Assembly: GCA_003136575.1 (NCBI GenBank) | Contig: PLEX01000119.1 | Location: forward strand, 4,515 to 68,514 | Reading direction: 5' to 3' | Length of the DNA: 64,000 bases | Source of the DNA: Bryobacterales bacterium | Lineage (GTDB): Bacteria; Acidobacteriota; Terriglobia; Bryobacterales; Bryobacteraceae | Part shown: positions 4,388-57,110 of the stretch, in pieces | Layout: every line of letters starts with the position of its first letter | Position numbering within the stretch: the stretch's first letter is position 1 | Position numbers and translations under genes: made by a program | The notes under the pieces: model-generated | The model's database searches: none | What the model saw: only the letters and a program-made list of their open reading frames with translations | What the model was told of the DNA's origin: nothing

Positions 4388-4397
4388 GGGAACAATT

Positions 4398-33795: not shown

Positions 33796-34562
33796 TCAAC
33801 TCGGCCAACAAGCGCCGAGGGCTTCCGTCAAGTCATTGATGTGGCGGGATTCCGTGGATTTTGCAAGATAGCTGTTGGCGTCGTTTTCATCGGCGGACGC
33901 AATATCCCGTTCCGCGTCCGACGTGGTAAGCATAATCGCCGGAATAGTGCGCAGTTCGGGAGCTTCCTTAATGGTGCGCAACACCTCGATTCCATCGATC
34001 GCGGGCAGCCGCAGATCGAGGAGAATCATGTGGGGCCGCGGGCTCAGAGCCGGCGCAGGTCCCCCTGAGGAACACATAATCCAGCGCCGCCTCGCCGTCG
34101 GAAACGCGGTGAATCCGGATTTCGAAGCTGCTGTTCGCGATTCCCCGCGCGGTAATCTCCGGTGGTCGTCATCGTCTTCAACCATCAGAATCTGCAATAC
34201 TTCCCCCGGTATCACATTTTCTCCGCACCGGGCTCTTTTTCGGGCCGCTTGTTGTCCGCTCCTTTCAGGGGTGAACCAGAACGTCGAACCCGTTTTCGGC
34301 GACTCCACCCGGATCCGCCCTCCATGCAACTCGATAATGCTTTTGACGATAGCCGACCCCGCGCCGCTGCCCTCCGCCTTTGGGTTGAGCTTATCGAAGA
34401 CGCCGAACCGTGAGTGTCAGCAATAGGGACCTCGGCAATGAAAGGCATGACGCTGATTTTCAGGGAGCGCGGGCATTAACTGGCTGCGGCGGGGAGTGAT
34501 GCGAGGATTTGAGTTGGAACAGGCGCAACGGCCCGAATAACCACCAGGCACATTGCACGTGC
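33796..34562 (-). pseudogene. relic of a hybrid histidine kinase (HATPase_c tail + receiver domain)
   Basis: N-box-like PTQILASLPAAAS followed by an in-frame TAA. Then ISVMPFIAEVPIADT, a frameshift, and RFGVFDKLNPKAEGSGAGSAIVKSIIELHGGRIRVESPKTGSTFWF. In the receiver, ILMVEDDDDH and PHMILLDLRLPAIDGIEVL share one frame, while the intervening ITARGIANSSFEIRIHRVSDGEAALDYVFLRG is in another. There is no DHp or sensor region upstream. Confidence 0.65.
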
Positions 34563-34774
34563 GGATGGTTGACCGCCAGAGGCCACACCAGGTTTTCATT
34601 TTACCGGGAATTCGACGACGCGTTTACGCTCGTGTCCTTCCTTCCCTTCCTTCCCCGGACCACCCGGTGCGCGGGTGGCCCGCCTGGAAATGGCGGAAGA
34701 CTCCTTTCCGAAGTGCTTGCATTTGGCTCGGCGCCCATCCGGACATCGCGGCACCTGAGGGCCTTCTTCCACCG

Positions 34775-38303: not shown

Positions 38304-39539
38304 TTAACCCGCTCCGTTCGTCAGCGCGTTGTGTCTTGCAATTTCGCCCAGATAATGCGCACTCGGCTTCACGGTTCTCACCTGTGTCGCACGATCGACC
38401 GCAACCAGCCCGAACTTCGGCCGATATCCCATAATCCACTCGAAATTGTCCAGCAGCGACCAATGAATGTAGCCGCGGACATCGATCCCGTCGTTAATGC
38501 AATTCATCATGCCGTCCAGCGCGCGGCGGATGTATTCGATCCGGCGTTCGTCGTCGTCCGTCGCCACGCCGTTCTCTGTGACGTAGATCGGAACCTTTAC
38601 GCGTGCGTGGGCGTATCGAAGGCAGGCCTCGAGCGCTTCCGGCCAGAATTCGTATCCCATTTGCGTGGTCTCGGCACCGGGTTCCGGAGTCAGATCGCTC
38701 CTCTTCCCGACTCTGCAACGAGTGTACGCCTGGACACCGAGGAAATCGCTCTTATCCGCTGCCGCCAGCCATGGGTCGTAAACCTCGGCGCACTTTTTAT
38801 CGCGCTTGCTGTCATGTCCTGCAGGCTGTTCGTCCTGCATGGAAATATTGACGCCAACGGGATACTTCCCGGGTCCCGATTTCACGATTTCAAACGCCTT
38901 GTGGTGCGCCGCGATCATCCGGTCGCGTAACTTATCGCCATCGCCGAGGAAGAAACACCCGAAGCGGTCGGCGCCGATAGCCCGCGCCGCCACTTTCGCC
39001 ATCCGCTTTACCTTAACGATCGGGATCTCCGAGATTGGCAGCCAGCGCAGTTGCATCGGAAGATTCGGCTCGTTGAAGGTGGCCGCGATTTGAATCAGGT
39101 CGCCCAGGTGCCTCGAGACACGGCCGCAATAGCGCACGAATAAGTCGCTGGATTCGGGCTTCTCCCACCCGCCCATCGCGGCGAACCAGCGCGGGGAACT
39201 GAAGTGATAGAGGGTGACCATCGGAGTGACCCCGTTTTCATGGCAGGCGGCCAGGACGCGCCGGTAGTGCTCCATGGCGGCGATGGAAAAATGGCCGCGC
39301 TCGGGTTCGATGCGCGCCCATTCGATGGAAAAACGGTAGGTGTTGAAACCGAGCTGCGCCAGCAGTTTTATGTCTTCGGGGAAAAGCCGAAGGTGGTCGC
39401 AGGCATCAAGCGACGGTTCGGCGAACAGCGTGGGTTCGATGTGCTCGAGCACCCACAGGTCGCTGTTGATGTTGTTCCCTTCCACCTGGTGCGCGGCCGT
39501 CGCGGCGCCCCAAAGGAACCCGTTTGGAAACCGAGCCAC
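38304..39539 (-). CDS. GH1 beta-glucosidase
   Basis: N-terminal FLWGAATAAHQVEG, acid/base ATFNEPNL, nucleophile YVTENG, and C-terminal HWSLLDNFEW. Confidence 0.9.
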   Translation of the reverse strand: MARFPNGFLWGAATAAHQVEGNNINSDLWVLEHIEPTLFAEPSLDACDHLRLFPEDIKLLAQLGFNTYRFSIEWARIEPERGHFSIAAMEHYRRVLAACHENGVTPMVTLYHFSSPRWFAAMGGWEKPESSDLFVRYCGRVSRHLGDLIQIAATFNEPNLPMQLRWLPISEIPIVKVKRMAKVAARAIGADRFGCFFLGDGDKLRDRMIAAHHKAFEIVKSGPGKYPVGVNISMQDEQPAGHDSKRDKKCAEVYDPWLAAADKSDFLGVQAYTRCRVGKRSDLTPEPGAETTQMGYEFWPEALEACLRYAHARVKVPIYVTENGVATDDDERRIEYIRRALDGMMNCINDGIDVRGYIHWSLLDNFEWIMGYRPKFGLVAVDRATQVRTVKPSAHYLGEIARHNALTNGAG

Positions 39540-40082: not shown

Positions 40083-41204
40083 TCAAGGAAGCATTTCTCC
40101 GCGCTGGGCGAGGAAGTGGCGCATGGCGGGCCGCAGCCCCGGGTTGGCGCACAACTGGAGGATGCCGGTAGCGGCGCTCAGCATCGTCGTCAGCGGCCAC
40201 GACGCACTCTTGCCCCAGACTTCGGTAAGCGAGCGCGCCACGCCGTCCTGCGTTCGATAGAAAACGCGATCCGTCCAGCGTTGCCTTCCCTGCGATTCCG
40301 GGTAAGTCCGAAGGATGTCCCAGGCCATTTCGAGAATGCGCTGCGCCATCGGTTCGCGATAGTGCGGCATGAAGTACGGCGCGCTTCGGCCCGCGCGAAT
40401 CTCGGCGACAAATTCGGAAAACGACGCGGCGTTCGTCAGATTGATGCACGCCGAGGGTTCGCAGGCGTGGCGGTCGCCGCCGGAGACCAGAGGGCGAAGG
40501 TACGTTTTCGCGAGGTGGACGACCTTCTCGTTTTCGTTCCAGACTCGCGTGCCATTCAGCTCGAACGCGTGGATCGAGTCGATGCATTCGCGCAGGATTC
40601 GCGGGAGTGCGCGGTCGTGATTCGCCTGCTCGATGCCTTCCTCGAGCCAGAAGGGGTGATTGAGGACGATCAGGACTTCCGGATTCGCGGCCAGATCGCG
40701 CAGCATGTCCGGCAGACGGTTCTCGTCGGGCGTCGCAGTGAACGCCGCCATCGCGGACATCGCCTCACGCGCCGAAACGGGCGGAAGGTTGTGAATGCCC
40801 AGGTGGAAAATCGAACGGTCGTACGGAACGGTCCACTCGACGGAAACCGGGACTTCGGCCGGGTCTGCGGCAACCTGTAACGAAATGCCCGCTTCGATAT
40901 TGTCATGGTCCGTGAGAGAGACCAATGGACGCAGACCCAACTTTGCGATCTGTTTTCGCTCAACATGCAAAGCGGAGGCCGGACTCAGCGGCGGAGTCCA
41001 CCAGGCGCGCGCGAAATCGACAGGACACGGCCCGCGCTCATAGCCGCTCACGATTTGGGAAACGACGGGCGCCTTATGCAGGTAACGCGGCAGGAACGAC
41101 AGGCACTCTTCGGAATGCAGCGTATGGCCGTGCAGGCAAACACCCGTTGCGAACTGCGATGCAGCTTCGGAATCCTTCCAGGCGAATTTGACGGATTTCG
41201 GCAA
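40083..41204 (-). CDS. PHP-domain-like metal-dependent phosphoesterase
   Basis: 373-aa ORF with PHP-type motifs CLHGHTLHSEE, SLTDHDNIE, HLGIHNL, LNHPFW, AFELNG and SGGDRHA. Confidence 0.55.
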   Translation of the reverse strand: MPKSVKFAWKDSEAASQFATGVCLHGHTLHSEECLSFLPRYLHKAPVVSQIVSGYERGPCPVDFARAWWTPPLSPASALHVERKQIAKLGLRPLVSLTDHDNIEAGISLQVAADPAEVPVSVEWTVPYDRSIFHLGIHNLPPVSAREAMSAMAAFTATPDENRLPDMLRDLAANPEVLIVLNHPFWLEEGIEQANHDRALPRILRECIDSIHAFELNGTRVWNENEKVVHLAKTYLRPLVSGGDRHACEPSACINLTNAASFSEFVAEIRAGRSAPYFMPHYREPMAQRILEMAWDILRTYPESQGRQRWTDRVFYRTQDGVARSLTEVWGKSASWPLTTMLSAATGILQLCANPGLRPAMRHFLAQRGEMLP

Positions 41205-41528: not shown

Positions 41529-42827
41529 CTACCAGAAGTAGGCAGTCTCGATCCGCGGCGGCCCGGAACTGCCTCTTACGACCTCAGTGGATATGACAGC
41601 CTGAAGATTCTTGTGCTGCCATCCGGCTGGCGCGAAGGATTCCAGTTTTTTCATGTAGGTGTCGTTCGTGACGAACTCGCCGGCCGCCAGTGTGCCGTTG
41701 GGACCGAGGCCGCCGACGGTAACGATCACTTGCTCAACGCCTGGGTCCGCCACACGGGAGACAAGGGCATAATCCCGGCCGGATTCCAATCCCGATAATC
41801 CGGAAGGTATTGACCACGATCGCGAGGGATTCCGACTATCGCGAATCGCCACCGGTCTGGAAGTGACATCAAAACTGAATCGCAACTTACCGGCGGACTT
41901 GATTGCCCAGCTATTGTTCCGCACGCCGATCAAAATGGCCGGAGAATCGCGCAGGTCGGCCAAGGTAGTGCCGTTGGGATTGAGAACCCGATAGGGCGCG
42001 TGCCGCAATCCCATGTAATCCGTGACGCGGGCGAGAGTCAGGGCATCGGTCATGGTGATCGGGCGCATGAGCGGGTCATCCGCAGGCTCGGCGGCCGCGC
42101 CGGATTGTCCAGTGTCCCGGCCGCCTTGCCCACCTTCCAGGGGACGGTTTCCCGACCCGCCGTAGCGGTTGCCCACGCAGATCAGAACCGGACGAGCCGA
42201 GGCCAACACTGGATTCCAGAACTCATCCAGGTCGCTTTGCGGACCGCCGAAGGAGGCTCGCAGAATCGCAAGAACGGCCAGCGCCGCAGCCGGCAGCACG
42301 AACATCGCCCGGCGGTAGGTATTCGCAGCTGGTTTGACTTCCACGGCGTCGGGTATTTCCCGAATTTCCGCCAGGGCGGCTACGGGAACCGCCTCGGTAA
42401 CCGGCGCGCGAAACTGCGGGATATAAGATCCCAGCGGCAGGTCAATCCGGATCTCGCCGGAATGGCTGGGGTCCACGTAGTATTGCGCCAGACGGCGACG
42501 CACTTCACCCGCGGCCGAACGGACAACGTGATCCGAGTTCGTATCGTAATCGGCGGCCCTGCCGAAGACCTCGACTCCGATGGTCCGCTCTTTCAGGCAC
42601 TCGGCATTTCCATCGAGCGTCGTCTCCACAACAAAGCGCAGAAACGCAGGGTACCGTTTGCTGGTGCCAAAGACGGAGCTGGCAAGAATACGTTCCAGTT
42701 GCCTATGGACTTCTTCCCGATCCCTGGACGTTCCGGGAAATGGCGCGGAGCTGACTGCGCCAATCTGACTTGTAGTAGACATTTGGACCCACCCGAAACG
42801 GAGGCATAACCCCACCCGGTTCGCCAT
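41529..42827 (-). CDS. single-pass membrane protein with an N-terminal wHTH-like (trans_reg_C-related) module and a periplasmic domain
   Basis: N-terminal block LERILASSVFGTSKRYPAFLRFVVETTLDGNAECLKERTIGVEVFGRAADYDTNSDHVVRSAAGEVRRRLAQYY, then a TM segment (MFVLPAAALAVLAILRASF) and a ~240-aa extracytoplasmic domain. Alternative start at ATG 42782. Confidence 0.6.
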   Translation of the reverse strand: MANRVGLCLRFGWVQMSTTSQIGAVSSAPFPGTSRDREEVHRQLERILASSVFGTSKRYPAFLRFVVETTLDGNAECLKERTIGVEVFGRAADYDTNSDHVVRSAAGEVRRRLAQYYVDPSHSGEIRIDLPLGSYIPQFRAPVTEAVPVAALAEIREIPDAVEVKPAANTYRRAMFVLPAAALAVLAILRASFGGPQSDLDEFWNPVLASARPVLICVGNRYGGSGNRPLEGGQGGRDTGQSGAAAEPADDPLMRPITMTDALTLARVTDYMGLRHAPYRVLNPNGTTLADLRDSPAILIGVRNNSWAIKSAGKLRFSFDVTSRPVAIRDSRNPSRSWSIPSGLSGLESGRDYALVSRVADPGVEQVIVTVGGLGPNGTLAAGEFVTNDTYMKKLESFAPAGWQHKNLQAVISTEVVRGSSGPPRIETAYFW

Positions 42828-42974
42828 AGGAGTATATCACGGATTTCGGGACTCAGCGGCCCGCCGAAAGCGACGTCCCGTACCGTCGTAGACGCCCTGC
42901 CTTCTGGTCGCCTATAGTATTGAAAATGTTATGGTTGAAATGGCAAGGACGGTCAAACGCTTGCGGCTGGGGTT

Positions 42975-42992
42975 GTATTGGGTCGACAATAC
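42975..42992. promoter_or_regulatory. inverted repeat GTATTG-n6-CAATAC in the divergent intergenic region (a related TAGTATTG lies at 42915-42922)
   Basis: Read directly. It lies 75 nt upstream of the 43067 start codon, between divergent genes. Confidence 0.25.
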
Positions 42993-43066
42993 TAGAAACT
43001 GCGAGACGCACCTTAACGCGTCAGAAGGACCCGCCTTGCGCTGGTCTGCACAGGAGTTTGGCAACA

Positions 43067-43501
43067 ATGAAGTTAACGAATATCCCCGGTTACTGTCTTT
43101 CTGTGTTCGTGCTCGGCGCGACGGCGGCTTATGCCCATCACTCGTTCGCGATGTTCGAGATGTCGAAGAACGTAACGTACGTGGGAACCGTTCTCGAGTA
43201 CAACTGGGAGAATCCCCATACGCACATCATCGTAAAGGTGCCCGAAGGGCGGGATAAAGCTACGGTCGGGACTTGGGATGTGGAGGGCGGCGCCGTCAAC
43301 ATCATGTCAAAACAGGGCTGGAACCGCGCGACCTTCAAGCCTGGCGACCAGATAACCGTGGTCGGGCACCCGATGAAAGACGGATCCAAAGGCGTCTCGC
43401 TATTTTATGTGATCATGCCGGACGGCAAGCGGTTGTATCACGATATTGCGCGGCCCGCTCCCGATGGAGCCGAGCCGCCACGCCAGCCGAATGCGCAGTA
43501 G
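43067..43501 (+). CDS. secreted protein with mature N-terminus HHSF (DUF6152-like)
   Basis: Start at ATG 43067, with AGGAG 11 nt upstream. Signal peptide MKLTNIPGYCLSVFVLGATAAYA, then HHSFAMFEMSKNVTYVGTVLEYNWENPHTHIIV. The DUF6152 label is recalled from memory. Confidence 0.7.
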   Translation: MKLTNIPGYCLSVFVLGATAAYAHHSFAMFEMSKNVTYVGTVLEYNWENPHTHIIVKVPEGRDKATVGTWDVEGGAVNIMSKQGWNRATFKPGDQITVVGHPMKDGSKGVSLFYVIMPDGKRLYHDIARPAPDGAEPPRQPNAQ

Positions 43502-43504
43502 CCA

Positions 43505-43993
43505 ATGTCGCCGATCAATATTCTGAACTGGCTCCAGCATACGTGGTGGGCCGTCGGGATTAAGGAGTCGGATTTTGTCTTCCCTCTGATTGAGGGGAGC
43601 CATATTCTCTCGCTTTCATTCTCGGTCGGCATGGTCATGATCCTCGATATGCGGTTGCTGCGAATCTCCTTTCGCAGCCAGCCGGTTTCACAGTTGATGG
43701 GGCAGCTCATGCCCTGGACGATGACCGGTTTCGCCGTTATGCTGCTGACCGGAATCCTGCTATTCGCCGCGCAGGCCGTCAAGGTCTATGGCAACACATT
43801 TTTCAGAATCAAAATGATTCTGATGTTGTTGGCCGGACTCAACGCCCTGTACTACCAGGTCAGATACTACCCGAAGATGGCGGAATGGGAACGCACGAAG
43901 ACGCCGCTCGGCGTGCGCATTATTGCTGTCCTTTCCCTGATCCTCTGGATCGGCGTGATCGCCTGCGGCCGCACGACGGCGTACGAACTGTAG
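43505..43993 (+). CDS. 4-TM membrane protein, paralog 1 (DUF6644-like)
   Basis: 162 aa. Motifs EGSHILSLS, ILDMRLL, MPWTMTG, FRIKMILMLLAG and LWIGVIACGRTTAY. Starts 3 nt after the upstream stop. Confidence 0.75.
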   Translation: MSPINILNWLQHTWWAVGIKESDFVFPLIEGSHILSLSFSVGMVMILDMRLLRISFRSQPVSQLMGQLMPWTMTGFAVMLLTGILLFAAQAVKVYGNTFFRIKMILMLLAGLNALYYQVRYYPKMAEWERTKTPLGVRIIAVLSLILWIGVIACGRTTAYEL

Positions 43994-44015
43994 GAATTGC
44001 CGGTCCACCTTCTCC

Positions 44016-44504
44016 ATGTTCCAGACATTCATCGATCGTTTTGTCCAATGGTGTTACTACTCGAAGGACTATGCGTTCATTCGGGATACTCCCTATGGCG
44101 TGCCCTTTGTGCAGTCCATGCATCTGACCGGAATTACGTTGTTGCTGGGAACGACGCTGGCGCTCAATCTCCGGCTCCTGGGCATCGGCTTTAAACGCAT
44201 GTCTCTTCCGTATCTGGCGGAGCAACTCTGGCTGTGGACGAAAGCGGGGATGGCGCTGACCGTCGTTTCGGGCATTATGGTCTTTCTTCCGGATCCGACC
44301 CGTTATGCGCATAACGGCCCCTTCCGGCTGAAGATGATACTGCTATGTCTTGCGCTGGCGTATCAGTTCGCGGTGTTTCGCAGGGTGGTCCGGACCGATC
44401 CGGAATCCGGATCGAAAGCGCGGAACGCCGCATTCAGTGCGTTGTCTCTGTGCCTCTGGTTCGGTGTGGCGTGGTCGGGCCGGGCGATTGCCTTCTTCCA
44501 GTAG
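44016..44504 (+). CDS. 4-TM membrane protein, paralog 2 (DUF6644-like)
   Basis: 162 aa. Motifs VQSMHLTGIT, ALNLRLL, LWLWTKAG, FRLKMILLCLA and LWFGVAWSGRAIAF. Confidence 0.75.
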   Translation: MFQTFIDRFVQWCYYSKDYAFIRDTPYGVPFVQSMHLTGITLLLGTTLALNLRLLGIGFKRMSLPYLAEQLWLWTKAGMALTVVSGIMVFLPDPTRYAHNGPFRLKMILLCLALAYQFAVFRRVVRTDPESGSKARNAAFSALSLCLWFGVAWSGRAIAFFQ

Positions 44505-44525
44505 CCCGATTGCCGGTGGGCAGGT

Positions 44526-45062
44526 TCAAACCAGATGGGCGAGCCGGCGCAACAAACCTGCAATCGCGTTCGGATCGTCGTAATAGGCGATCCACCTTCC
44601 GCAGACGACCAGACTCAGCCAGAGAATCAGGGAAGCGCCCCCCGCGATCACAGCCTTCGCCGGCAGCTTTCCTTCCTCATCCAGGCGGGTGTTGTAATAA
44701 ACGCTGCGATGAAAGATCAGTCCGTGGATGCCTGTCAGGATCAGCAGGGATAACTTGAGCTGAAAATACGGATTCGCGCAGTACTTCTCCAGATGCGAGC
44801 CGGCGAGAAGGATGCCGCACGCGATCATGACGACGAAGCCGATACGCTTCCACACGCGCAGCGATTCAATCACCACGCTGGCCGGAGTATGCTTCAGCGC
44901 CAGATTCAACAGACGGAGATTCGTCATCAGAATCATGCCGCCAAAAATGGCGATGCAGGAGAGATGAGTCGCCATCACGGTCGGATAGAACAGTTCCGAC
45001 TGGCGGACCGACGTAAAAAAGTCGGTACTCTGGATCGCGTGGCTTAGAGTCGCTAACGACAT
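44526..45062 (-). CDS. 4-TM membrane protein, paralog 3 (DUF6644-like)
   Basis: 178 aa. Motifs VMATHLSCIA, MTNLRLL, LRVWKRIG, FQLKLSLLILTG and LWLSLVVCGRWIAY. Confidence 0.75.
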   Translation of the reverse strand: MSLATLSHAIQSTDFFTSVRQSELFYPTVMATHLSCIAIFGGMILMTNLRLLNLALKHTPASVVIESLRVWKRIGFVVMIACGILLAGSHLEKYCANPYFQLKLSLLILTGIHGLIFHRSVYYNTRLDEEGKLPAKAVIAGGASLILWLSLVVCGRWIAYYDDPNAIAGLLRRLAHLV

Positions 45063-45071
45063 GGGAACTCG

Positions 45072-45545
45072 CTAATACCCGCCTGGGTTGAAAGCGAAGA
45101 ACAGGCCGGAAAACACTATCGTTACCCAGAGAATCATGGATATTGCCCCTGTGGCCTTCGCGATGAAGGGAGAGGAACCAGACAGCGCCACTCTCCGGTG
45201 GAACGTGTAGTTGAAAACGATGGCGGCCAACAGCACCCAGATCTTGAACCGGAAGGTCGGGCTGTAGTAATAGCGCAGCGGATCGGACGAAAAGATCGCC
45301 AGCCCGGCGGTAATGACGGTTGCCAGCCCGGCCACCGTCCACAACTCGGTAGCGCGCAGAATCTGCGCGGGACTGCGTCCTTTGACGCCGGCGCCAAGCA
45401 GGCTCATGTCCACCATGGCGATCGTCCCGATGGAAAGCGCGAACGATCCGATATGAACACACTCCATGGCCGCGAACAGCCATTCCACCGTGTTCATTGG
45501 ATTGGTGGAGAGGTCGTAAGGTTGTATCAACTCGATCTCCGCCAC
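45072..45545 (-). CDS. 4-TM membrane protein, paralog 4 (DUF6644-like)
   Basis: 157 aa. Motifs MECVHIGSFA, MVDMSLL, TELWTVAG, FRFKIWVLLAA and LWVTIVFSGLFFAF. Confidence 0.75.
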   Translation of the reverse strand: MAEIELIQPYDLSTNPMNTVEWLFAAMECVHIGSFALSIGTIAMVDMSLLGAGVKGRSPAQILRATELWTVAGLATVITAGLAIFSSDPLRYYYSPTFRFKIWVLLAAIVFNYTFHRRVALSGSSPFIAKATGAISMILWVTIVFSGLFFAFNPGGY

Positions 45546-45576
45546 TGGTGCGCAACATTCTTTTTCCCGGTATGCG

Positions 45577-46530
45577 TCACAGATCCAGTGCTCGTTCCAT
45601 CCAGTCTATCTGTCTGCGCGTTTCCTCGACGGCGGTGAAGCCGGGAGTCGTGTAACTCCTCTCGAGGATGAAAGCAATCGGGTAGTGCCTGTCCCTTGCC
45701 ATCCGCAGCATGTCGTAAATCCTGAGCACGCCTTCGCCCAATTCAGTGGCGGGGCCGCCGCCGACCGATTTTACGTCTTTCACATGGACATGGCTGATGC
45801 GATCATGGTGTTCCGTGAAGTACTTCAACGGATCGTTGCCGCCGTCCGCGAAGTGGCCGATGTCCAGATTCACCATGAAGTACTTCGACATCGACAGAAG
45901 CTTCGCCAGACTTTCGGGCGAGGCAACCTCGTTGGGGTCGTTCACCAGAGCATGGGTATGCCAGGCGGGCATAATCCTGTACTTCTCGGCGTAAGGAACA
46001 ATTCGGGGGCCGGCAGACACGCGGCTCTGATTGGTACAGAACCGGTCGACACCCAGAGCCTGCATCTGTTTGAAGACAGCCTCGATTTCCGGTTCGGTGA
46101 AGTCGTCGCCGATCGTCATCACCAAGGAATACAGGTTCAATCCCGCCGCGTCGAATTTCCTGCGGATTTCCCGGAAACGGTCCAGCGGCCCGTTGATTCG
46201 CCAATCGCGCAGTGCCTCCCGGGACTTCTGGTATTCGGGCGTCACTGTTGTCGGTGCCTGGCCACCGATGCCGCCGCCCGTCACGCGGGGTTCCAGTGGC
46301 GTATTGACCAATTCCACGGTGCCCGCTTTGGCATCGATGCATTGTTGGACGATCAGATCAACGACATCCTGACCCGGCGCGGCGTTGGCCTGTCCGAGCG
46401 ATCCGGTGATTGCGCCGAGCCTGACGCCTTTATAAACCGCATCGACAGCCGCGCTCTTCAGACTGGTAGCGGCCAGCGTGGGGAGCGTGGCGCCTGCGAG
46501 TATCTTCCCCCATTCGCGTCGTGAATACAT
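45577..46530 (-). CDS. xylose-isomerase-like TIM-barrel protein (sugar phosphate isomerase/epimerase family) with a Tat-like signal
   Basis: Start at ATG 46530 (MYSRREWGKILAGATLPTLAATSL). Motifs VELVN, WHTHA, NLDIGHF and ISHVHVKDV. Confidence 0.7.
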   Translation of the reverse strand: MYSRREWGKILAGATLPTLAATSLKSAAVDAVYKGVRLGAITGSLGQANAAPGQDVVDLIVQQCIDAKAGTVELVNTPLEPRVTGGGIGGQAPTTVTPEYQKSREALRDWRINGPLDRFREIRRKFDAAGLNLYSLVMTIGDDFTEPEIEAVFKQMQALGVDRFCTNQSRVSAGPRIVPYAEKYRIMPAWHTHALVNDPNEVASPESLAKLLSMSKYFMVNLDIGHFADGGNDPLKYFTEHHDRISHVHVKDVKSVGGGPATELGEGVLRIYDMLRMARDRHYPIAFILERSYTTPGFTAVEETRRQIDWMERALDL

Positions 46531-46540
46531 GGCTCGCGGT

Positions 46541-47431
46541 TTACCTTTGCACGGGTGGCACAATCGACTGGTTCCACAGCGGGTCGGTGGCGTCGCAGAA
46601 GGTTTCGAGCGCATACGATCCCGGTTCCGTCCGGTCGAAAAAATACTGAAAGGTGTGCGGCTTCTGGTAGATTTTCGGATCGATCCAGGTAAACGTGATC
46701 GTCAGGTGCTTCCCGTCGGCCGAAGGCGTGTAGCGTTGAATGGCGCGCGTCTCCGCGGTGCGATAGCCGCCCGCCGTGACCGCACCCGGGGTCATGTCGC
46801 CGGTTTCTACCACCAGCGTGCCGTCCGCTTCAAAATGCCCCACGGAATAGCCCGAACTGGTTGGCTGCCGGACGGAGGCATCGGGGATGGCAGTCCGGTT
46901 GAGATAAATCCGCCGCGAGCCATTGCGTTCCTGAACCACCAGTGCTTCCTGCCTGCTCACCACCATGTGGAAGCCTTCGGAATCGTATTCCATGCCGAGT
47001 TGCCCGCCGCCATTGAACGAGCAGGAATTCTGCCGCACGAGGTAGGGCACGCCGACCTCATGCGGACCCGTATCGGCTGTCTGACCGCCCCCTGGGCCTC
47101 CCCGGCCCCCACCTCGCCCGCCGCGTCCTCCACCCTGCGCCAGCGCGGCACCTTCCGGAGTGAGCAAGGCGGGAGTAAAGGTTCTTGTCAGCGCGTCCCA
47201 GCTTCCCGCGCCAACGGGATCGATGCGCACCCAATCGCCTTCCACACTGGGCGGAACCGGTGCGGCTTGTCCCCGCCCGCCGCCGCGTCCTTGCACGCTG
47301 CCCGGCGTCTGGGCAAGCAGCAGCGCCGAGGCCGCTATACCCATCAGGATCAGCCGGAATGGCCGGACTCCCGAACTGCTCACTTCATTTCCCATAGCCA
47401 ATTCAAACTCCCTGTTTGCCGAGCGCCTCAT
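46541..47431 (-). CDS. secreted hypothetical protein, paralog B, with Gly/Arg-rich segments
   Basis: Signal-like FRLILMGIAASALLLAQ; GRGGGRGQ and QGGGRGGRGGGRGGPGGGQ. Shared core with paralog A: SVGHFEADGTLVVET...IQRYT...ITFTWIDPKIYQKPHTFQY. Its ATG overlaps the stop of paralog A (ATGA). Confidence 0.65.
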   Translation of the reverse strand: MRRSANREFELAMGNEVSSSGVRPFRLILMGIAASALLLAQTPGSVQGRGGGRGQAAPVPPSVEGDWVRIDPVGAGSWDALTRTFTPALLTPEGAALAQGGGRGGRGGGRGGPGGGQTADTGPHEVGVPYLVRQNSCSFNGGGQLGMEYDSEGFHMVVSRQEALVVQERNGSRRIYLNRTAIPDASVRQPTSSGYSVGHFEADGTLVVETGDMTPGAVTAGGYRTAETRAIQRYTPSADGKHLTITFTWIDPKIYQKPHTFQYFFDRTEPGSYALETFCDATDPLWNQSIVPPVQR

Positions 47432-48342
47432 TTTGCCGCCGTCGCCACCGGCCGCGCCGGCGCCTTTCTGCCCGATGCACCCGCTGCCGCTCGCCCGGCG
47501 GCCGCTGCCGCCCTGGCTTCAATGGATGCCGCCTCGGCTGCGGCCCTTTGCGCCGGGGTGAATGTCCGGGTGATGAACTCGGTGCGTTCCGCGTCAAACG
47601 GGTCGCAGGGGATGCCGTTTCGGGGTTCATAATCGGCAGCCGCCTTCGTATAACGGTATTCGTAGGTGTGCGGTGTCCGAAAGACCCTGGGGTCCGTCCA
47701 CGTGAATGAAACGGAGAGGACGGTGCCGTTCTTGAGCAAGGTGTATCGTTCCACCAGATGGGAGTTTTCGGTCCGGAACCCGCCGCCCGGAATCAGCATT
47801 CTGCCGTCTTTGGGGTGGAAGCCGATCGTATCCACAATCAGCGTGTCGCCTTCCCAGTGCGCGACGGAATCGCCCATCGACGCCGGGTCGAAGATTTTGG
47901 AATCGATGTGAGGGCGGTCGAAGTAAAGGTGCCGGGGCGAAGCGTTCGCCTCCGGCGTGATCAGGACTTCCCACTTACCCTGTTGAATATCCAGCGGACG
48001 TCCGTTGTCCATCACGGCCGGCAGGCCCAGAGGTCTGCACCAACGGAGAGATACCGCGTCCTCCAGAACAACTTTATCCAGGTAAGTCTTGGTGACCGTG
48101 GGGAGCAGGTTCGCGGCCGGGATGCTCTTGTTCTCCGGACCCAGTTCCCAGTATCCCGAGATATCGTGGGGATCGAAGGAAGCGGCCATCCCGGCGCCGC
48201 GTCCACCGCCCCGGCCGGAACCGCCGGTTGCCCCAATTGCGGCACCACCCCGGCCTGCTCCACCCTGGGCGGCAATTGTCCCTAGCATTGCGGCGCCGAC
48301 CAGGGAAACCCTCAAGGCGCGGCGCGCCAACCAATTCTTCAT
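47428..48342 (-). CDS. secreted hypothetical protein, paralog A, with a Gly/Arg-rich N-terminal segment and an Ala-rich tail
   Basis: Signal MKNWLARRALRVSLVGAAMLGTIAAQ; GGAGRGGAAIGATGGSGRGGGRGAG. Core SVAHWEGDTLIVDT...VERYT...VSFTWTDPRVFRTPHTYEY. Confidence 0.65.
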   Translation of the reverse strand: MKNWLARRALRVSLVGAAMLGTIAAQGGAGRGGAAIGATGGSGRGGGRGAGMAASFDPHDISGYWELGPENKSIPAANLLPTVTKTYLDKVVLEDAVSLRWCRPLGLPAVMDNGRPLDIQQGKWEVLITPEANASPRHLYFDRPHIDSKIFDPASMGDSVAHWEGDTLIVDTIGFHPKDGRMLIPGGGFRTENSHLVERYTLLKNGTVLSVSFTWTDPRVFRTPHTYEYRYTKAAADYEPRNGIPCDPFDAERTEFITRTFTPAQRAAAEAASIEARAAAAAGRAAAGASGRKAPARPVATAAK

Positions 48343-50576: not shown

Positions 50577-51014
50577 CTATGCCAACATCTGCATCAGCCG
50601 CGTGCGGACGGTTTCCGCCACAACGGAATCGGGACAAACCACCAGCACGGTATCGTCCCCGGCGAGAGTACCGACCACCTCCGGCCATTCGGCGTTATCG
50701 AGAGCCACGGCGACTGAACTAGCGTGTCCCGGCGCTGTTCGCAACACGATTTGATTCTGCGCGACGCGGACATCCCGCAGGAATTCGCCGACAACCGTTG
50801 CCAGATCTCGGGGGGGCTTCTGAAGCTGTAATGCGCGATAACCCTCCGGAGTCTTGACCAGGCCCATTTCGCGGATATCGCGCGAGAGCGTCACCTGCGT
50901 GGCTTCGATGCCGCACTCTTTCAGTGCGTGGGCGAGTTCTTCCTGGGTCGAAATACTGCCGTTGCTTATCAGCTTCAGGATTTGGCCCTGCCGGTAGCTC
51001 TTGGTCATCGTCAC
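50577..51014 (-). CDS. argR: arginine repressor ArgR
   Basis: 145 aa. wHTH region RQGQILKLISNGSISTQEELAHALKECGIEATQVTLSRDIREMGLVK and C-terminal GTLAGDDTVLVV. Its ATG overlaps the argH stop (ATGA). Confidence 0.9.
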   Translation of the reverse strand: MTMTKSYRQGQILKLISNGSISTQEELAHALKECGIEATQVTLSRDIREMGLVKTPEGYRALQLQKPPRDLATVVGEFLRDVRVAQNQIVLRTAPGHASSVAVALDNAEWPEVVGTLAGDDTVLVVCPDSVVAETVRTRLMQMLA

Positions 51015-52399
51015 GCCAGCTCAGCCAGGCGCTGACGGGCCGTCGCGAGAGCCGAGGCAACCACGCCGGGCCCGGTGCCACCGGCGATTTCGCGCGTCTT
51101 CATGCCTTCGCGCGGATCGAGCAGGCGCGCGACCTCCGGCGTAAATTCCGGCGCGAACGCAGCAAGGGATTCCGCATTCCAGTCGGCCGGCTTCTTACCA
51201 TTGCGAACGCTTTCGAGCACCAGACGCCCCACCGTTTGATGCGCCTGATGAAACGCTGTGCCATTGCGCGCGAGGGCCTCGGCCAGATCCGTTGCAACCA
51301 CCCAGCTCTCTTCGGCGGCAGCGAATGGAACGCCGGGCCGCAACACCACGGATTCGGCGACGCCCCGAGCCATCTCCAGGCAGCTGTTGACCTGATCGGC
51401 GGCCTCGAACAGCGGCTCTTTGTCCTCCTGCATGTCGCGGTTGTAGGTCATCGGCAGACCTTTCATCGTGAAGAGCAGCGAGTTCAAAGCCCCGATTACG
51501 CGACCAGACTTGCCGCGGATCAATTCGAGCGAATCGGGATTTTTCTTCTGCGGCATCAGGCTGGAACCGCTGGTGACGCCATCGCCCAATTCCATCCAGG
51601 CGAACTCTTCCGACGAGTAGAGAATCCAGTCTTCGGCAAGCCGGCTCAAGTGGATCATCACCATGGAAGCAGCATAGAGGTAGTCGAGCGCAAAGTCGCG
51701 GTCCGCGGAAACGTCCATGCTGTTGGCGGTGATGGAGGCGAAACCCAAATCCCGCGCAATCGCTTCGCGGTCGTGCGGGAACCCGGAACCTGCCAGCGCG
51801 CCCGATCCGAGCGGCATTACATTCACACGCCGGCGCGCGTCGCCGAGACGCTCGTAATCGCGCGACAGCATTTCAAAATATGCCAGCAGATAGTGCGGCC
51901 AAAGTACCGGCTGCCCGCGGCGCAGATGAGTATAACCGGGAATTACCGCGTTCGGATATCTTCCGGCAAGGTCGATCAGCGCCGACATCAGCGCCTTCAC
52001 CAACTCCCGCGTGCGGTCGCATTCGTCGCGAAGCCACAAGCGCGTATCGAGAGAAACCTGTTCATTGCGGCTGCGGCCGGTGTGGATCTTGTCGGCGAGC
52101 GCGCCGACGCGCTGTTTCAGTTTCCGGATGACGAAGGAGTGAATGTCTTCGTCGTCGGCTCCGGCGAAAAAGGCCGCTCCGTTTTCACCTTCGGCGTCGG
52201 ACCGGATGGCGTCGAACGCCGCGCAGAGAGTGGCGCATTCAGCATCGGTCAGTACTCCCGCTCTGGTGAGTGAACGCGCGAAAGCCTGCGATCCGCGCAC
52301 GTCGGCTGCGAGCAGTCGGCGATCGAAGTGGAGCGAATTGGAAAACCGTTCGAAGACTTCCGACGGTCCGGTTTCAAAGCGGCCTCCCCAGAGCTTCAC
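51011..52399 (-). CDS. argH: argininosuccinate lyase
   Basis: KLWGGRFETGPSEVFERF; fumarate-lyase signature GSSLMPQKKNPD. Start is placed at GTG 52399, which overlaps the argF stop (GTGA). The longer ORF N-terminus is antisense-like and would overlap argF. Confidence 0.9.
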   Translation of the reverse strand: MKLWGGRFETGPSEVFERFSNSLHFDRRLLAADVRGSQAFARSLTRAGVLTDAECATLCAAFDAIRSDAEGENGAAFFAGADDEDIHSFVIRKLKQRVGALADKIHTGRSRNEQVSLDTRLWLRDECDRTRELVKALMSALIDLAGRYPNAVIPGYTHLRRGQPVLWPHYLLAYFEMLSRDYERLGDARRRVNVMPLGSGALAGSGFPHDREAIARDLGFASITANSMDVSADRDFALDYLYAASMVMIHLSRLAEDWILYSSEEFAWMELGDGVTSGSSLMPQKKNPDSLELIRGKSGRVIGALNSLLFTMKGLPMTYNRDMQEDKEPLFEAADQVNSCLEMARGVAESVVLRPGVPFAAAEESWVVATDLAEALARNGTAFHQAHQTVGRLVLESVRNGKKPADWNAESLAAFAPEFTPEVARLLDPREGMKTREIAGGTGPGVVASALATARQRLAELA

Positions 52400-53328
52400 A
52401 GAGACCGTTCCGTACCCAACAACGCCAGCAGCAGGGCTTTTTGCGCATGAAGGCGGTTTTCCGCCTCGGCGAAGACGACCGCGCGCGGAGATTCCATCAC
52501 GCTGTCGGTCACCTCTTCTCCCCGGTGCGCGGGCAGACAATGCATGAAGACGGCTTCGGGAGCCGCGTGGGCGAAAAGCTCGTCGTTGACCTGATAGCCC
52601 GCGAAATCGGCCAGGCGCCGGGTGGCTTCGTGCTCATCGCCCATGCTGGTCCAAACGTCCGTGTACACAACCTGGGCGCCGCGAACCGCTGTAACCGGAT
52701 CGTTTGTGATTTCCACTTCGCCTTCGGCCATGGCGACGATTTCGGCGGGCAAAGCGTAACCCGGAGGTGTGGCTATCGCGAAACGCATCCCCAGCCGCGT
52801 CGCGTTTAACAGGAGCGAACTGGCCACGTTGTTACCGTCGCCGACGAAAGCAAGCTTCAGGCCGCGCGTCTCGCCGAAGCGCTCGCGCACTGTCTGCATG
52901 TCAGCCAACGCCTGGCAGGGATGCCACATGTCGCTGAGAGCGTTGATCACGGGTACCGAGGCCCAGAGGGCAAGATCGTCCACGGTCTGCTGGGTGTAAG
53001 TTCGCGCGACGATGCCGTCAACCCAGCGATCCAGATTGCGCGCGACATCCTTTAGTGGTTCGCGGACGCCGATGCGGCCTTCATTGACGATGGCAAACCC
53101 GCCCAGTTGCTGAATAGCCAGCTCAAACGTTACGCGGGTGCGCAGAGAAGGCTTTTCGAAGAGCAATGCTAAAGCCTTTCCGTTGAGTGCTTTACTGTAG
53201 CGGCCAGGGTTTCGTTTCACCTCGGCCGCGAGGTCGATCAAAGAGTGGAGTTCATCGGTGGTTGCGTCGAGATCGCGCGTGAAGTTAGGGTGGGCGAGGC
53301 GAAGAACCTGCGGCATCGTGGCAGTCAT
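52396..53328 (-). CDS. argF: ornithine carbamoyltransferase
   Basis: Motifs FEKPSLRTRVTFE, HPCQALADMQT, GDGNNVASS and HCLPAHRGEE. Confidence 0.9.
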   Translation of the reverse strand: MTATMPQVLRLAHPNFTRDLDATTDELHSLIDLAAEVKRNPGRYSKALNGKALALLFEKPSLRTRVTFELAIQQLGGFAIVNEGRIGVREPLKDVARNLDRWVDGIVARTYTQQTVDDLALWASVPVINALSDMWHPCQALADMQTVRERFGETRGLKLAFVGDGNNVASSLLLNATRLGMRFAIATPPGYALPAEIVAMAEGEVEITNDPVTAVRGAQVVYTDVWTSMGDEHEATRRLADFAGYQVNDELFAHAAPEAVFMHCLPAHRGEEVTDSVMESPRAVVFAEAENRLHAQKALLLALLGTERSL

Positions 53329-54566: not shown

Positions 54567-57110
54567 TTGCGACTACGGGAACCCCTGATTCCGATTTTCG
54601 TCTGCTTCGCCGCCGGCGTCGTGATCGAGCAGTTTCAGCCCGTTCCGCTTCGCTCGGCGCTCCTGGCTGGCTGCGTTTGCCTGGCTCTGGCCGTATTCGC
54701 GCATCGGGCCGTGCGGCACGCGGGAATTGCCGCGCGAGTTGCCGGCGGCGCGTCTCTTCTGTTCGCAGGCGCGTCGCTGGTCGCGATCCAGCCGCCGATC
54801 ATCCCACCCGTACTCTCGGTTCCCGACAACACGACCGCCATTTTCCAGGGATGCGTCGTGGACCCCGCATTGGTTGGAGCGGATCGCGAACGCTTCGGCA
54901 TTGAGCTTGCGCCGGGCGCGCGGGCGCAGGTGTCGTTATTCGCCAAACCGGGTGAGACGTTCCCGGCCCTGCCGTACGGGACAATCGTCGAGTTTCAGGG
55001 CAAGGCCCGCAGTCCGCATAAATACGCGAATCCGGGTGCGTTCGATTACGTCCACTACCTCGCCCGGCAATCGATCTTCTGGAATTTATCCGCTGCGGCG
55101 TCCACCGTTCGCATCGTGCCCGGGCATTGCGGCAACCGGTTCACGGCGTTCATTATGGGCGTTCGCAGCGCGTCGCTGGAGCGGCTGGACAAACTGTATC
55201 CGAACGACATCTACACCAACGGCATGATGCAGGCGATCCTGATTGGCGCCACGGTGAAGCTGGACAAAATGTGGACGCAGGATTACCGCTCCACCGGGAC
55301 ATTCCACACGCTGGTGATTTCGGGTACGCACGTGGCCATTCTCGCGGGCTTCCTGCTGTTCCTGTTGCGGATCTGCGCCGTGCCGCGCGGCATTGCGATC
55401 ACGATTACGATTCTGGCCGCGTGGCTCTACGCGGGAATCACGGGATGCCAGGCGCCGGTTCTGCGATCGGCGACAGGCATGACGCTCTACGGAATCGGCC
55501 GTTTCTTTTATCGGGAAGGCCGGATACTGAACATCCTGGCGGCGGTCGCGATCCTGTTCGTTGTCGTCGACCCGGAACAGGTGTTCGATGCGAGTTTCCA
55601 GCTGACCTTTCTCGCGGTGGCGCTGATTGGCGCGTTTGTCGTTCCGGCGCTGAGTGCAACGTCTGGGCCGCTGGCGCGCGGCCTTTCCGATCTCGGCGAC
55701 ATGCGTCGCGATCTGCGGCTGCCCCCGAAAACGGCGCAGTTCCGCGTGGAAATGCGCTTGTTGATCGAGACACTGGTGCTGTTGTGTGGCGCGCGGCTGC
55801 GGCGTTTGTTTCAGGTGCTGGTGGTTGGGATTGCCCGCGTGTGCATTTACGCCTGGGAAATCTCGCTGACATCGATCTTTATCCAGATTGGCCTTGCACT
55901 GCCGATGATCGCTTACTTCCACCGCTTGCCGGTCTCCGGCTTTACGGCGAATGCGCTGGTTGTGCCGGCCCTGAGCGCGTTGTTGCCGCTGGGTTTTTTC
56001 ACCATCGCCACGCAATCGCATGTTCTCGCCGCGGTGTGCGCGTGGCTGCTGGCAGAATCGCGGCGCGTCGTCGGTTTCCACGCCCGGTTCGTGCCGGACT
56101 GGCGGATACCCGCTCCGCCCTGGTGGCTCGGTGCGGTGTTCGTACTGTTTCTGGTTATAGCAGCGTGGCGAGGCAACGGCCGCCGGATCCGAACGATTGC
56201 TCTGGCGGGCGCCACCTTCGCGCTGCTTACGATAGCTGTCCATCCGTTCCCGCCCGTCGTCGATAAAGGGCATTTCGAACTCGCCGCGATTGACGTGGGG
56301 CAGGGCGATAGCTTGTTGACCGCGTTTCCTTCCGGGCAACTGATGCTGGTCGACGCGGGCGGTATTGCGGCGTTTGGCAGGACGCGCAGGCCGGGAATCG
56401 ATGTCGGTGAGGATGTTGTTTCGCCATACCTCTGGACGCGGTCGATCAAGCGCCTGGATGTGGTCGCGATGACGCACGCGCACGAAGATCACATGGGCGG
56501 GATGGTTGCGGTGATGAAGAATTTTCGCCCGCGCGAGGTTTGGATTGGCGCCGTGGGTGAAAGCCCCGAGTGGCAGGAGGTGCGGAAGTCCGCGCGCGAG
56601 CTGGGTATTCCGATTCGCGCTCTGCGGCAGGGCGCGCCGTTTTCATTCGGCGGAGCGACGATTCAGGTGCTCGCGCCGTTGCCCGACTACGAGGCGACGG
56701 AGAAGGCGCAGAATAACGACTCGCTGGTGATGCGCGTGCAGTTCGGGTCGACGGGTTTCCTGCTGACAGGCGACATGGAGAAGAAGATTGAAGAGCGGTT
56801 GTACGACGACGGCCTGCTGCGCCCGGCGGACGTGCTGAAGGTGGGGCATCATGGCAGCCGGACGTCGAGCACGGCGGATCTGCTGGATGCGGTGCACCCT
56901 GCGTTTGGGGTGATTTCCGTGGGGTTTGAGAATAGCTACGGACATCCGCATCCGCTGACGATACAGGCGCTGCGGGAACGGCATGTGACGATTTACCGGA
57001 CCGATGAGCAGGGGTTGGTGCGTGTGGTCAGCGACGGGCACAGGCTGCGGATCGAGAGCGAGAATCCGTTGACGCCGGAAGAAGCGCCGGTGCAGGCGAG
57101 ACTGCGTTAG
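54567..57110 (+). CDS. comEC: DNA internalisation competence protein ComEC/Rec2
   Basis: 847 aa with a TTG start. Polytopic competence domain (TGTFHTLVISGTHVAIL) and a C-terminal metallo-beta-lactamase domain (DVGQGDS, MTHAHEDHMGG, KVGHHGS). Confidence 0.9.
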   Translation: MRLREPLIPIFVCFAAGVVIEQFQPVPLRSALLAGCVCLALAVFAHRAVRHAGIAARVAGGASLLFAGASLVAIQPPIIPPVLSVPDNTTAIFQGCVVDPALVGADRERFGIELAPGARAQVSLFAKPGETFPALPYGTIVEFQGKARSPHKYANPGAFDYVHYLARQSIFWNLSAAASTVRIVPGHCGNRFTAFIMGVRSASLERLDKLYPNDIYTNGMMQAILIGATVKLDKMWTQDYRSTGTFHTLVISGTHVAILAGFLLFLLRICAVPRGIAITITILAAWLYAGITGCQAPVLRSATGMTLYGIGRFFYREGRILNILAAVAILFVVVDPEQVFDASFQLTFLAVALIGAFVVPALSATSGPLARGLSDLGDMRRDLRLPPKTAQFRVEMRLLIETLVLLCGARLRRLFQVLVVGIARVCIYAWEISLTSIFIQIGLALPMIAYFHRLPVSGFTANALVVPALSALLPLGFFTIATQSHVLAAVCAWLLAESRRVVGFHARFVPDWRIPAPPWWLGAVFVLFLVIAAWRGNGRRIRTIALAGATFALLTIAVHPFPPVVDKGHFELAAIDVGQGDSLLTAFPSGQLMLVDAGGIAAFGRTRRPGIDVGEDVVSPYLWTRSIKRLDVVAMTHAHEDHMGGMVAVMKNFRPREVWIGAVGESPEWQEVRKSARELGIPIRALRQGAPFSFGGATIQVLAPLPDYEATEKAQNNDSLVMRVQFGSTGFLLTGDMEKKIEERLYDDGLLRPADVLKVGHHGSRTSSTADLLDAVHPAFGVISVGFENSYGHPHPLTIQALRERHVTIYRTDEQGLVRVVSDGHRLRIESENPLTPEEAPVQARLR

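Follow-up and report, generated by a model that had tools for sequence, protein, structure and literature searches.

Converging operons for envelope proteins in a Bryobacterales bacterium and their possible part in periplasmic metal transfer

Two tightly packed, convergent operons in a Bryobacterales bacterium raise the question of what eight exported and membrane proteins, most of them from families without an assigned function, might do together in the cell envelope. The operons lie between positions 43067 and 48342 of a 64,000-nucleotide stretch of contig PLEX01000119.1 (assembly GCA_003136575.1), hereafter the window, whose numbering is used for all coordinates. An earlier note on this DNA had described the components as uncharacterised and located in the envelope, and we find the same: apart from one TIM barrel they are DUFs or match no family, and they carry export signals or transmembrane (TM) helices. 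The cluster is one widely conserved envelope module, and sets of its components recur in about 80 genomes. We read it, tentatively and with somewhat less than an even chance of being right, as a metal relay like those of CopC/CopD or YcnI/YcnJ, probably for Cu(II), assembled from non-homologous periplasmic parts.

A conserved set of envelope genes

The open reading frame (ORF) listing and our reading of the sequence place two convergent, tightly packed operons with eight genes in a span that had been announced as a nine-gene cluster; the earlier list itself names eight, and the ninth partner is found just outside, as a conserved neighbour of 432 residues that we label REG432 (41529-42827, minus strand). 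The plus-strand operon consists of gene A, for a DUF6152 protein, and genes B and C, for DUF6644 proteins with four TM helices, separated by gaps of 3 and 22 nucleotides. The minus-strand operon holds genes H and G, for two paralogous secreted proteins whose family we label GH, gene F, for a Tat-exported TIM barrel, and genes E and D, for two further DUF6644 proteins; an ATGA overlap joins H and G, and gaps of 10, 31 and 9 nucleotides follow. The ends of C and D are 21 nucleotides apart (44505-44525). All of these spacings agree with the earlier description.

Conservation was assessed from a scan for DUF6152 in one genome per species (185,579 species genomes), which gave at least 590 loci; the best 79 of these were examined, and the counts of DUF6152, GH and DUF6644 genes and of TonB-dependent receptors in them come from our own hidden Markov model (HMM) searches on their six-frame ORFs. 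The homologous loci in other genomes carry labels from L002 to L090, and those found with DUF6152 belong to the Bryobacterales, Vicinamibacterales, Acidiferrales, Steroidobacteraceae, Caulobacteraceae, Sphingomonadales and Dormibacterota. Carriers that can be cultured include Steroidobacter flavus, Povalibacter uvarum and Novosphingobium humi. A GH domain lies within 1.5 kb of the DUF6152 gene in 88 of 117 cases (75%), and 67 of 78 loci (86%) hold at least one GH gene. DUF6644 is present in 30 of 78 loci (38%), each time with two or more genes. The G/H family is the most faithful partner of DUF6152, ahead of DUF6644, which the earlier note had overlooked.

Gene order is conserved as well as gene content. 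The closest relative, L007, retains the exact arrangement of the window with the same eight genes at 74-83% identity. Other Bryobacterales (L008-L014) have a co-directional operon in the order REG432, TonB-type outer-membrane protein, GH, GH, DUF6152, DUF6644, DUF6644, TIM barrel, cytochrome c and pyrroloquinoline quinone (PQQ) dehydrogenase. In Vicinamibacterales and other Acidobacteriota the order is genes E and D, genes H and G, DUF6152, and a DUF6644 pair (L019, L022-L025, L039). DUF6152 lies directly upstream of the DUF6644 pair in the window, L002, L007, L008, L010, L012 and L014, and in L087-L090, four loci that were seeded with DUF6644 through a protein search and two context look-ups and that reach B-type relatives only. 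This synteny across classes of Acidobacteriota shows that the two convergent operons of the window are one conserved set, and the neighbourhood survey as a whole shows that the cluster did not arise by chance and that its components are co-conserved.

Some loci depart from these arrangements. In two Micropepsaceae loci (L052, 6686-8487; L069, 4802-6584) four DUF6152 genes stand in tandem with no GH gene nearby, an exception to the pairing of the two families. On annotated sphingomonad plasmids the neighbours of DUF6152 are a DUF6644 pair, a TonB-dependent receptor or GH-sized proteins labelled 'hypothetical'. In L089 a co-directional array (1-11019) consists of a TonB-type outer-membrane protein, a ResA/TlpA-like redoxin, a 496-residue protein, a second redoxin, DsbD_N, a GH-size protein, DUF6152 and four DUF6644 genes, which links the module there to periplasmic thiol-redox proteins. 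L005 carries a multicopper oxidase (CueO/PhsA-like), a 299-residue protein, an MbnH/MauG-like di-haem enzyme and a CarboxypepD_reg/fn3 protein (3263-8187) between its DUF6152-DUF6644 pair and a DUF6644-GH module, and this is the only clearly copper-linked context seen. The TonB-dependent receptor was considered as a core component and rejected, since it is present in 28 of 79 loci.

Predicted properties of the encoded proteins

Gene A (43067-43501, plus strand; 144 residues) matches DUF6152 (PF19649) with 100.4 bits, against a Pfam gathering cutoff of 27, over positions 4-94 of the 98-position profile. Its start is supported by an AGGAG at 43052-43056, 10 nucleotides upstream of the ATG and conserved in L007. 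The Sec signal peptide (43067-43135) ends in ...AAYA, so that the mature protein, with cleavage predicted by the -3/-1 rule, begins with HHSFAMF from base 43136 (His24-His25). Among 126 distinct DUF6152 sequences from the 79 loci, 123 could be aligned at the mature N-terminus; all 123, from several phyla, begin with His-His, and 94% have Ala at position -1. Pro50 and His51 are likewise present in 123 of 123, within a near-invariant Asn-Pro-His51 motif, and there is strong conservation of Glu73 (97%), Asp94 (91%) and Trp47, Trp70 and Trp85 (about 90%); His53, His101 and His125 are conserved in close relatives only. One of the two peptide patterns that seeded the locus search was AHHSFAMF, and the focal genes are therefore biased toward the His-His motif; about 45 extra DUF6152 paralogs in the same loci, not selected by motif, also carry it. 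The His-His terminus that had been proposed for this one protein is a hallmark of the family.

The DUF6152 fold is predicted to be an OB-fold and not a sandwich of the CopC or YcnI type. The AlphaFold2 (AF2) model (pLDDT 84) has the order b1-b2-b3-helix-b4-b5, its Foldseek matches are the OB domains of lysyl-tRNA synthetase (LysRS) and RPA, and 15 of 44 DUF6152 members have weak matches to the ComEC OB domain DUF4131; together these set the family apart from CopC and YcnI. In the model His51 (b1-b2 turn), Glu73 (end of b3) and Trp47 (end of b1) plausibly share one end of the barrel. Sequence searches of the PDB, made with DUF6152, with the GH profile and with the REG432 N-terminal domain, brought no meaningful match, and no paper in the literature searched mentions "DUF6152" or "DUF6644". 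The OB-fold and a C-terminal His-Asp after the last strand had also suggested a haem chaperone like CcmE, an idea that was dropped because His125 is present in just 34 of 126 members.

The four membrane proteins are encoded by genes B (43505-43993) and C (44016-44504) on the plus strand and genes E (45072-45545; GTG start, 157 residues) and D (44526-45062; 178 residues) on the minus strand, C and D being the second members of the B/C and E/D pairs. All four match DUF6644 (PF20349; cutoff 27), with 56.6 bits for B, 43.6 for C, 63.3 for D and 30.1 for E, so that the earlier guesses of DUF6152-like and DUF6644-like proteins were both correct. Gene B has sub-threshold matches to DUF2214 (2.6e-4) and to CopD (PF05425; 4.6e-3, 17.7 bits against a cutoff of 32.1). 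Among 63 DUF6644 members such matches to DUF2214 occur in 17 and to CopD in 6, the best at E = 1.2e-5; the precomputed domains of close DUF6644 homologues include CopD, and one paralog has a weak match to HemJ (TIGR00701, E = 0.01). These similarities suggest that DUF6644 is remotely related to CopD and DUF2214.

Hydropathy and the positive-inside rule give DUF6644 four TM helices with the N-terminus outside, which places His33 at the periplasmic end of TM1. This TM1 histidine had been called invariant, and it is so in 63 of 63 sequences, as are Gly83, Lys103 and Trp148; Gly42, Arg50, Ser144 and Gly155 are conserved in at least 90%. Lys103, Trp148 and Gly155-Arg156 also fall within the periplasmic leaflet, and the cytoplasmic half has nothing conserved except Arg50.

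DUF6644 genes stand in same-strand tandem pairs in 82 of 85 cases, and the positions in a pair are separate orthogroups: B then C after DUF6152, and E then D before GH genes. The gene B orthogroup is that of the first position after DUF6152, and the gene C orthogroup is conserved in L005, L007, L008, L010, L012 and L014. The gene E orthogroup is found in L005, L007, L019, L022-L025 and L039, and D-type orthologues follow E-type genes in L007, L019 and L022-L024. From the pairing and the orthogroups we infer that DUF6644 proteins dimerise.

Genes H (47428-48342) and G (46541-47431), both on the minus strand, encode the secreted proteins of the GH family. They are paralogs, as the earlier note had said, with 36% identity over the C-terminal 113 residues (E = 8e-22), and neither matches a Pfam or NCBIfam family. 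G may start at Met13 (47395). A word-seeded search gave 728 close homologues, all of them free of Pfam domains, and an exhaustive profile search gave 7,387 representatives (at 50% identity) at E <= 1e-3, of which 1,821 are at E <= 1e-10. G-type orthologues follow H-type genes in L005-L007, L019, L022, L023, L025, L032, L039 and L040, and in L018 and L024 the two again stand side by side. Fusions of two GH domains, 450-530 residues long and with no other Pfam domain, make up about a dozen of the best 150 representatives (among them P0361, P0410, P0428, P0430, P0445, P0460, P0463-P0466 and P0468), and these natural fusions suggest that the H and G products probably dimerise and act as a heterodimer.

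The H protein consists of a signal peptide, a Gly/Arg-rich linker, a beta-barrel and an Ala-rich helical tail at its C-terminus, and its AF2 model (pLDDT 84) has the barrel followed by the Ala-rich helices. The best Foldseek matches of the model are all to FABP, CRBP and CRABP, and are weak (E 2e-3 to 4e-2, target TM-score 0.5-0.63), so that the barrel may tentatively be described as calycin- or FABP-like. Conservation in the family is highest at Arg137 (99%), Asp217 (98%), Glu198 (93%) and Cys102 (87%), and the alignment has no conserved His. Wherever the stretch near the C-terminus aligns, it contains a second Cys, which together with Cys102 suggests a disulfide. The Gly/Arg-rich low-complexity stretches (GGAGRGG..., GGGRGGRGGGRGG) occupy residues 27-52 of H (48187-48264) and, as an internal insert, about residues 99-116 of G (47084-47137); they are missing from distant homologues such as those in L003 and are therefore lineage-specific inserts. 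RGG-like tracts are rare in periplasmic proteins.

Gene F (45577-46530, minus strand) encodes a xylose isomerase-like TIM barrel (AP_endonuc_2, PF01261; 43.2 bits against a cutoff of 31.1). The nearest solved structures are 3lmz, 3p6l and 4kw2, uncharacterised 'sugar isomerase/epimerase' entries that match its C-terminal metal-binding half and differ from it in that F has a Tat signal; scores against IolE and other equivalog models are far below the cutoffs. Its N-terminus, MYSRREWGKILAGATLPTLAATSL, carries a Tat signal of the [ST]-R-R-x-F-L-K type with a hydrophobic stretch, in the form MYSRREWGK, and the motif M-x-[ST]-R-R-x-[FLW]-[GAT]-[KQR] is kept in most of the 23 orthologue N-termini inspected. 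The Tat signal proposed earlier is thus well founded, and its conservation sets the start of the gene at Met29 (46530), although the ORF is open to 46614.

Metal relay and competing readings

In the relay that we tentatively propose, a metal ion would be captured in the periplasm and then handed over to the inner membrane. Cleavage of the signal peptide would expose the N-terminal His-His on the OB-fold of DUF6152, where the amine and imidazole of His1, together with His51, Glu73 and nearby Trp residues, would form a histidine-brace-type site, most likely for Cu(II). The four DUF6644 proteins would form two heterodimers, B with C and E with D, each with eight TM helices and, like a split CopD, two TM1 histidines at the periplasmic face, and these dimers would accept the ion. 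The calycin-like G/H heterodimer would be the obligate periplasmic partner of DUF6152, and the Tat-exported enzyme F a co-regulated client or metabolic neighbour.

A histidine brace consists of an N-terminal amine and imidazole plus a second His, which completes a T-shaped N3 site. Copper is favoured as the metal because an invariant His at residue 1, exposed by cleavage, is the signature of such a site; the first residue of mature DUF6152 is His if cleavage occurs as predicted, and invariant His51 is the candidate for the second. Among metal ions, Cu(II) is the one that a His at the N-terminus should chelate preferentially (PMC10952591), and YcnI builds its site from such a His together with a Glu and a conserved Trp (PMC12362106). 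The CopD protein YebZ of Escherichia coli has eight TM helices and depends for copper uptake on two conserved periplasm-side histidines, to one of which the N-terminal His site of its partner YobA is presented; 'truncated' CopDs with four TM helices retain one of the two (PMC11923076). A single DUF6644 protein has four TM helices and one invariant periplasm-side His, and a tandem hetero-pair fits the role of CopD in that it would rebuild the total of eight helices and two histidines. The position of DUF6152 directly before DUF6644 pairs, the recurrence of the complete gene set and the copper- or redox-related surroundings in L005 and L089 also speak for the relay.

The CopC/CopD systems (YobA/YebZ and Pseudomonas CopCD) and YcnI/YcnJ resemble the cluster in several ways. 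Each has a small secreted protein with an N-terminal His after cleavage (the signal peptide of YobA ends in ...VWA|H and that of DUF6152 in ...AYA|HH), encoded beside polytopic membrane proteins with a conserved His at the periplasmic face, and each has an extra accessory periplasmic protein, YebY or YcnI in the one case and G/H in the other. An association of copD neighbourhoods with TonB-dependent receptors has also been reported (PMC11923076). The differences are that DUF6152 has a predicted OB-fold in place of the cupredoxin-like sandwich of CopC, with no detectable sequence homology, that two distinct four-helix proteins scoring below the CopD cutoff take the place of one eight-helix CopD, and that the neighbours of the cluster are catabolic and not copper genes and its families multi-copy. 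Because the fold of the periplasmic protein differs, the HMM tests fail and the CopD score is sub-threshold, the cluster stands outside the CopC/CopD and YcnI/YcnJ families. The earlier comparison with the logic of these systems accordingly holds for the His-His terminus, the remote CopD likeness and the periplasmic TM1 His, and fails for DUF6152 as a relative of CopC or YcnI; it is a fair analogy.

The Cu(I)/Ag(I) chaperones CusF and SilF are small Sec-exported OB-fold proteins with a His-rich mature N-terminal region, features that are predicted for DUF6152 too. The ligands of CusF (a His, two Met and a Trp, on b2-b3) appear to differ from the conserved set of DUF6152, whose N-terminal His, second His and Glu would suit Cu(II) over Cu(I), and DUF6152 has no genes for RND efflux partners nearby. 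Histidine-brace proteins, among them the lytic polysaccharide monooxygenases (LPMOs), X325/Bim1, PmoF, CopC and YcnI, are like DUF6152 in being secreted, in having an N-terminal His and another His that is invariant, and in the aromatic residues around the putative site. To our knowledge all described histidine braces are on immunoglobulin-, fibronectin- or cupredoxin-like sandwiches, and in the literature searched no paper joins 'histidine brace' with 'OB-fold'.

A number of observations weigh against a metal relay. On the side of the periplasmic protein, none of 44 DUF6152 members matches CopC or DUF1775 even at E <= 1, an hhalign comparison with YobA gave an alignment over no more than the signal peptide and the first His, and one with CusF was not significant (E = 0.054, probability 1%). 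The AF2 model represents the uncleaved form with the signal peptide attached, and so does not represent the geometry of the N-terminal site. On the side of the membrane proteins, the CopD matches of DUF6644 are all below the Pfam cutoff, and hhalign found no relation between DUF6644 and E. coli YebZ (E = 0.28). There is no conserved Met, His, Cys, Asp or Glu in the middle of the membrane in DUF6644, and the position of Lys103 and Arg156 in the periplasmic leaflet suggests an anionic cofactor rather than a path for cations; haem b or another planar anionic cofactor seems a better fit for the outer-leaflet pocket formed by His, Lys, Trp and Arg.

The genomic context points the same way. No DUF6644 gene is present in 62% of the loci with DUF6152. 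In 29 of 78 loci there is more than one DUF6152 gene, and GH genes too are often multi-copy, which would be unusual for a factor in metal homeostasis. Neither is the copper-type neighbourhood implied by the analogy seen. In a Pfam census of 109 neighbouring proteins from loci outside the Bryobacterales, no copper-homeostasis family was present; MFS transporters, the glycoside hydrolase family GH3, TonB-dependent receptors and AP_endonuc_2 TIM barrels were found 5 times each, and PQQ dehydrogenases, cytochrome c and metallo-beta-lactamases 4 times each, a catabolic context.

An alternative that we regard as unlikely is a periplasmic redox module. In this case the two TM1 histidines of the DUF6644 heterodimer would coordinate a haem b in the outer leaflet, a ligation like that proposed for HemJ, electrons would pass between the quinone pool and a copper centre in DUF6152, the G/H barrel would bind a ligand, and the whole would be an oxidase, oxygenase or electron carrier serving PQQ dehydrogenases, cytochrome c and TIM-barrel enzymes. 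The invariant His33, Lys103 and Trp148 and the Gly155-Arg156 pair of DUF6644 are all in the periplasmic leaflet with no deeper conserved ligand, and this pocket mildly favours the haem-b conduit that the earlier note had offered as its other possibility. HemJ binds haem b through its TM1 His, and HemJ, DUF2214 and 'truncated CopD' resemble DUF6644 in having four TM helices, a single conserved TM1 His and sub-threshold similarity. The HemJ match of the one paralog is weak and not significant, however, and DUF6644 is a separate Pfam family that occurs as hetero-pairs near DUF6152 and GH and has no link to tetrapyrrole synthesis. A single haem per dimer in one leaflet would be insufficient alone for electron transfer across the membrane, and DUF6644 has no conserved ligands for a quinone site or a second haem. 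As to context, the Bryobacterales operon runs from GH-GH-DUF6152-DUF6644-DUF6644 through the TIM barrel to cytochrome c and PQQ dehydrogenase, GH pairs directly follow PQQ dehydrogenase genes in L003, L013 and L014, and multi-copy expansion fits modules specific to a substrate or enzyme; the cluster in the window has neither cytochrome c nor PQQ dehydrogenase.

A more elaborate form of the redox idea, which we consider a long shot, would make DUF6152 the first histidine-brace copper centre on an OB-fold and combine it with its obligate partner G/H and haem-b DUF6644 heterodimers into a new periplasmic system for the activation of oxygen or peroxide. Such a system would draw its electrons from the quinone pool and would be a functional analogue of an LPMO with its cytochrome-b donor, and soil Acidobacteriota and Proteobacteria would use it on substrates imported by TonB-dependent receptors.

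Also unlikely, in our estimate, is a shuttle for an organic ligand. Its cargo would be a small hydrophobic or anionic compound taken up by way of a TonB-dependent receptor, and could be PQQ, a tetrapyrrole, a metallophore, the aglycone of a glycoside, or a fatty or aromatic acid. The calycin barrels of G/H, and perhaps also DUF6152 with its OB-fold, would bind this compound and deliver it to periplasmic enzymes or to DUF6644, and the partner of the His-His terminus would be a ligand or a metallophore in place of a free ion. The FABP-like fold of H and the conserved Arg, Glu and Asp set of its family, with no conserved His, are consistent with such a role, although the structural match is weak (E about 2e-3). 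The GH-DUF6152 pair is the conserved core, with a GH gene in 67 of 78 loci, many genomes have several such pairs, and the contexts are varied and catabolic, with TonB-dependent receptors (28 of 79 loci), GH3, MFS, IclR and metallo-beta-lactamase; in the window itself the upstream flank encodes a GH1 beta-glucosidase and an MFS transporter. For these taxa, however, TonB-dependent receptors are modestly enriched, no ligand can be named, and the combination of an invariant N-terminal His-His with His and Glu is a metal signature and atypical for an organic ligand.

That the window holds two unrelated abutting operons, a DUF6152/DUF6644 unit and a separate sugar-enzyme operon with its own membrane proteins, is highly improbable and largely refuted by synteny: convergent transcription allows no shared transcript and DUF6152-DUF6644-DUF6644 stands alone in L002 and L015, but L008-L010 and L014 hold a single co-directional GH-GH-DUF6152-DUF6644-DUF6644-TIM operon, the arrangement of E/D, H/G, DUF6152 and pair recurs in L019, L022-L025 and L039, and L007 keeps the order of the window exactly.

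The three core families are large and functionally blank. If the metal relay is correct, the OB-fold would be a third, structurally unrelated scaffold among copper binders with an N-terminal His, permeases of the CopD type would be able to split into hetero-pairs, and there would be a pointer to the handling of trace metals beside periplasmic oxidative catabolism in the abundant and little-studied Acidobacteriota of soil; a redox module would represent a new class of oxidative machinery in the envelope. The metal hypothesis is directly testable on one small soluble protein.

Flanking genes and the intergenic region

REG432 is transcribed divergently from the DUF6152 gene. As read from its sequence, a single TM helix (about residues 172-192) separates an N-terminal domain in the cytoplasm from a C-terminal one in the periplasm, and the protein has no Pfam, NCBIfam or PDB sequence match. 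Homologues stand at the head of the cluster in L003, L007-L014, L016, L026 and L029, usually just before the TonB-type outer-membrane protein in the Bryobacterales clusters, and REG432 may be a sensor or regulator specific to the cluster.

The divergent intergenic region (42828-43066), which includes the Shine-Dalgarno sequence of gene A, has several blocks conserved with L007, including GGACGGTCAAA and TTGGGTCGACAATAC. At about 42872-42897 there is a near-palindrome, GCGTCCCGTACCGTC..GACGCC, which in L007 forms a 9-bp stem without a mismatch. The conserved blocks could be candidates for an operator or promoter, but none of them was recognisable as a Fur- or Zur-like box. An operator search in the two upstream regions found no inverted repeat, a promoter and terminator scan found sites no more numerous than in shuffled sequence, and the convergence gap at 44505-44525 has no room for a terminator-like hairpin.

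Upstream of REG432 are a gene for a 373-residue protein without a family match (40083-41204, minus strand) and the GH1 beta-glucosidase gene (38304-39539, minus strand), and the MFS transporter gene lies further out in the same flank (34553-35983). GH3 and MFS genes also recur near DUF6152 in the Steroidobacteraceae, and a link of the cluster to glycosides is possible. The downstream flank has glycosyltransferase and arginine genes. Core genes in the window include those for Mfd (9465-12956, plus strand) and ComEC (54567-57110, plus strand) and the ArgR-ArgH-ornithine carbamoyltransferase group (50577-53328, minus strand), and the cluster is thus an island among housekeeping genes. A gene unrelated to it (13990-17274, minus strand) encodes a 1,094-residue fusion of a CheB methylesterase, a CheR methyltransferase and several PAS domains.

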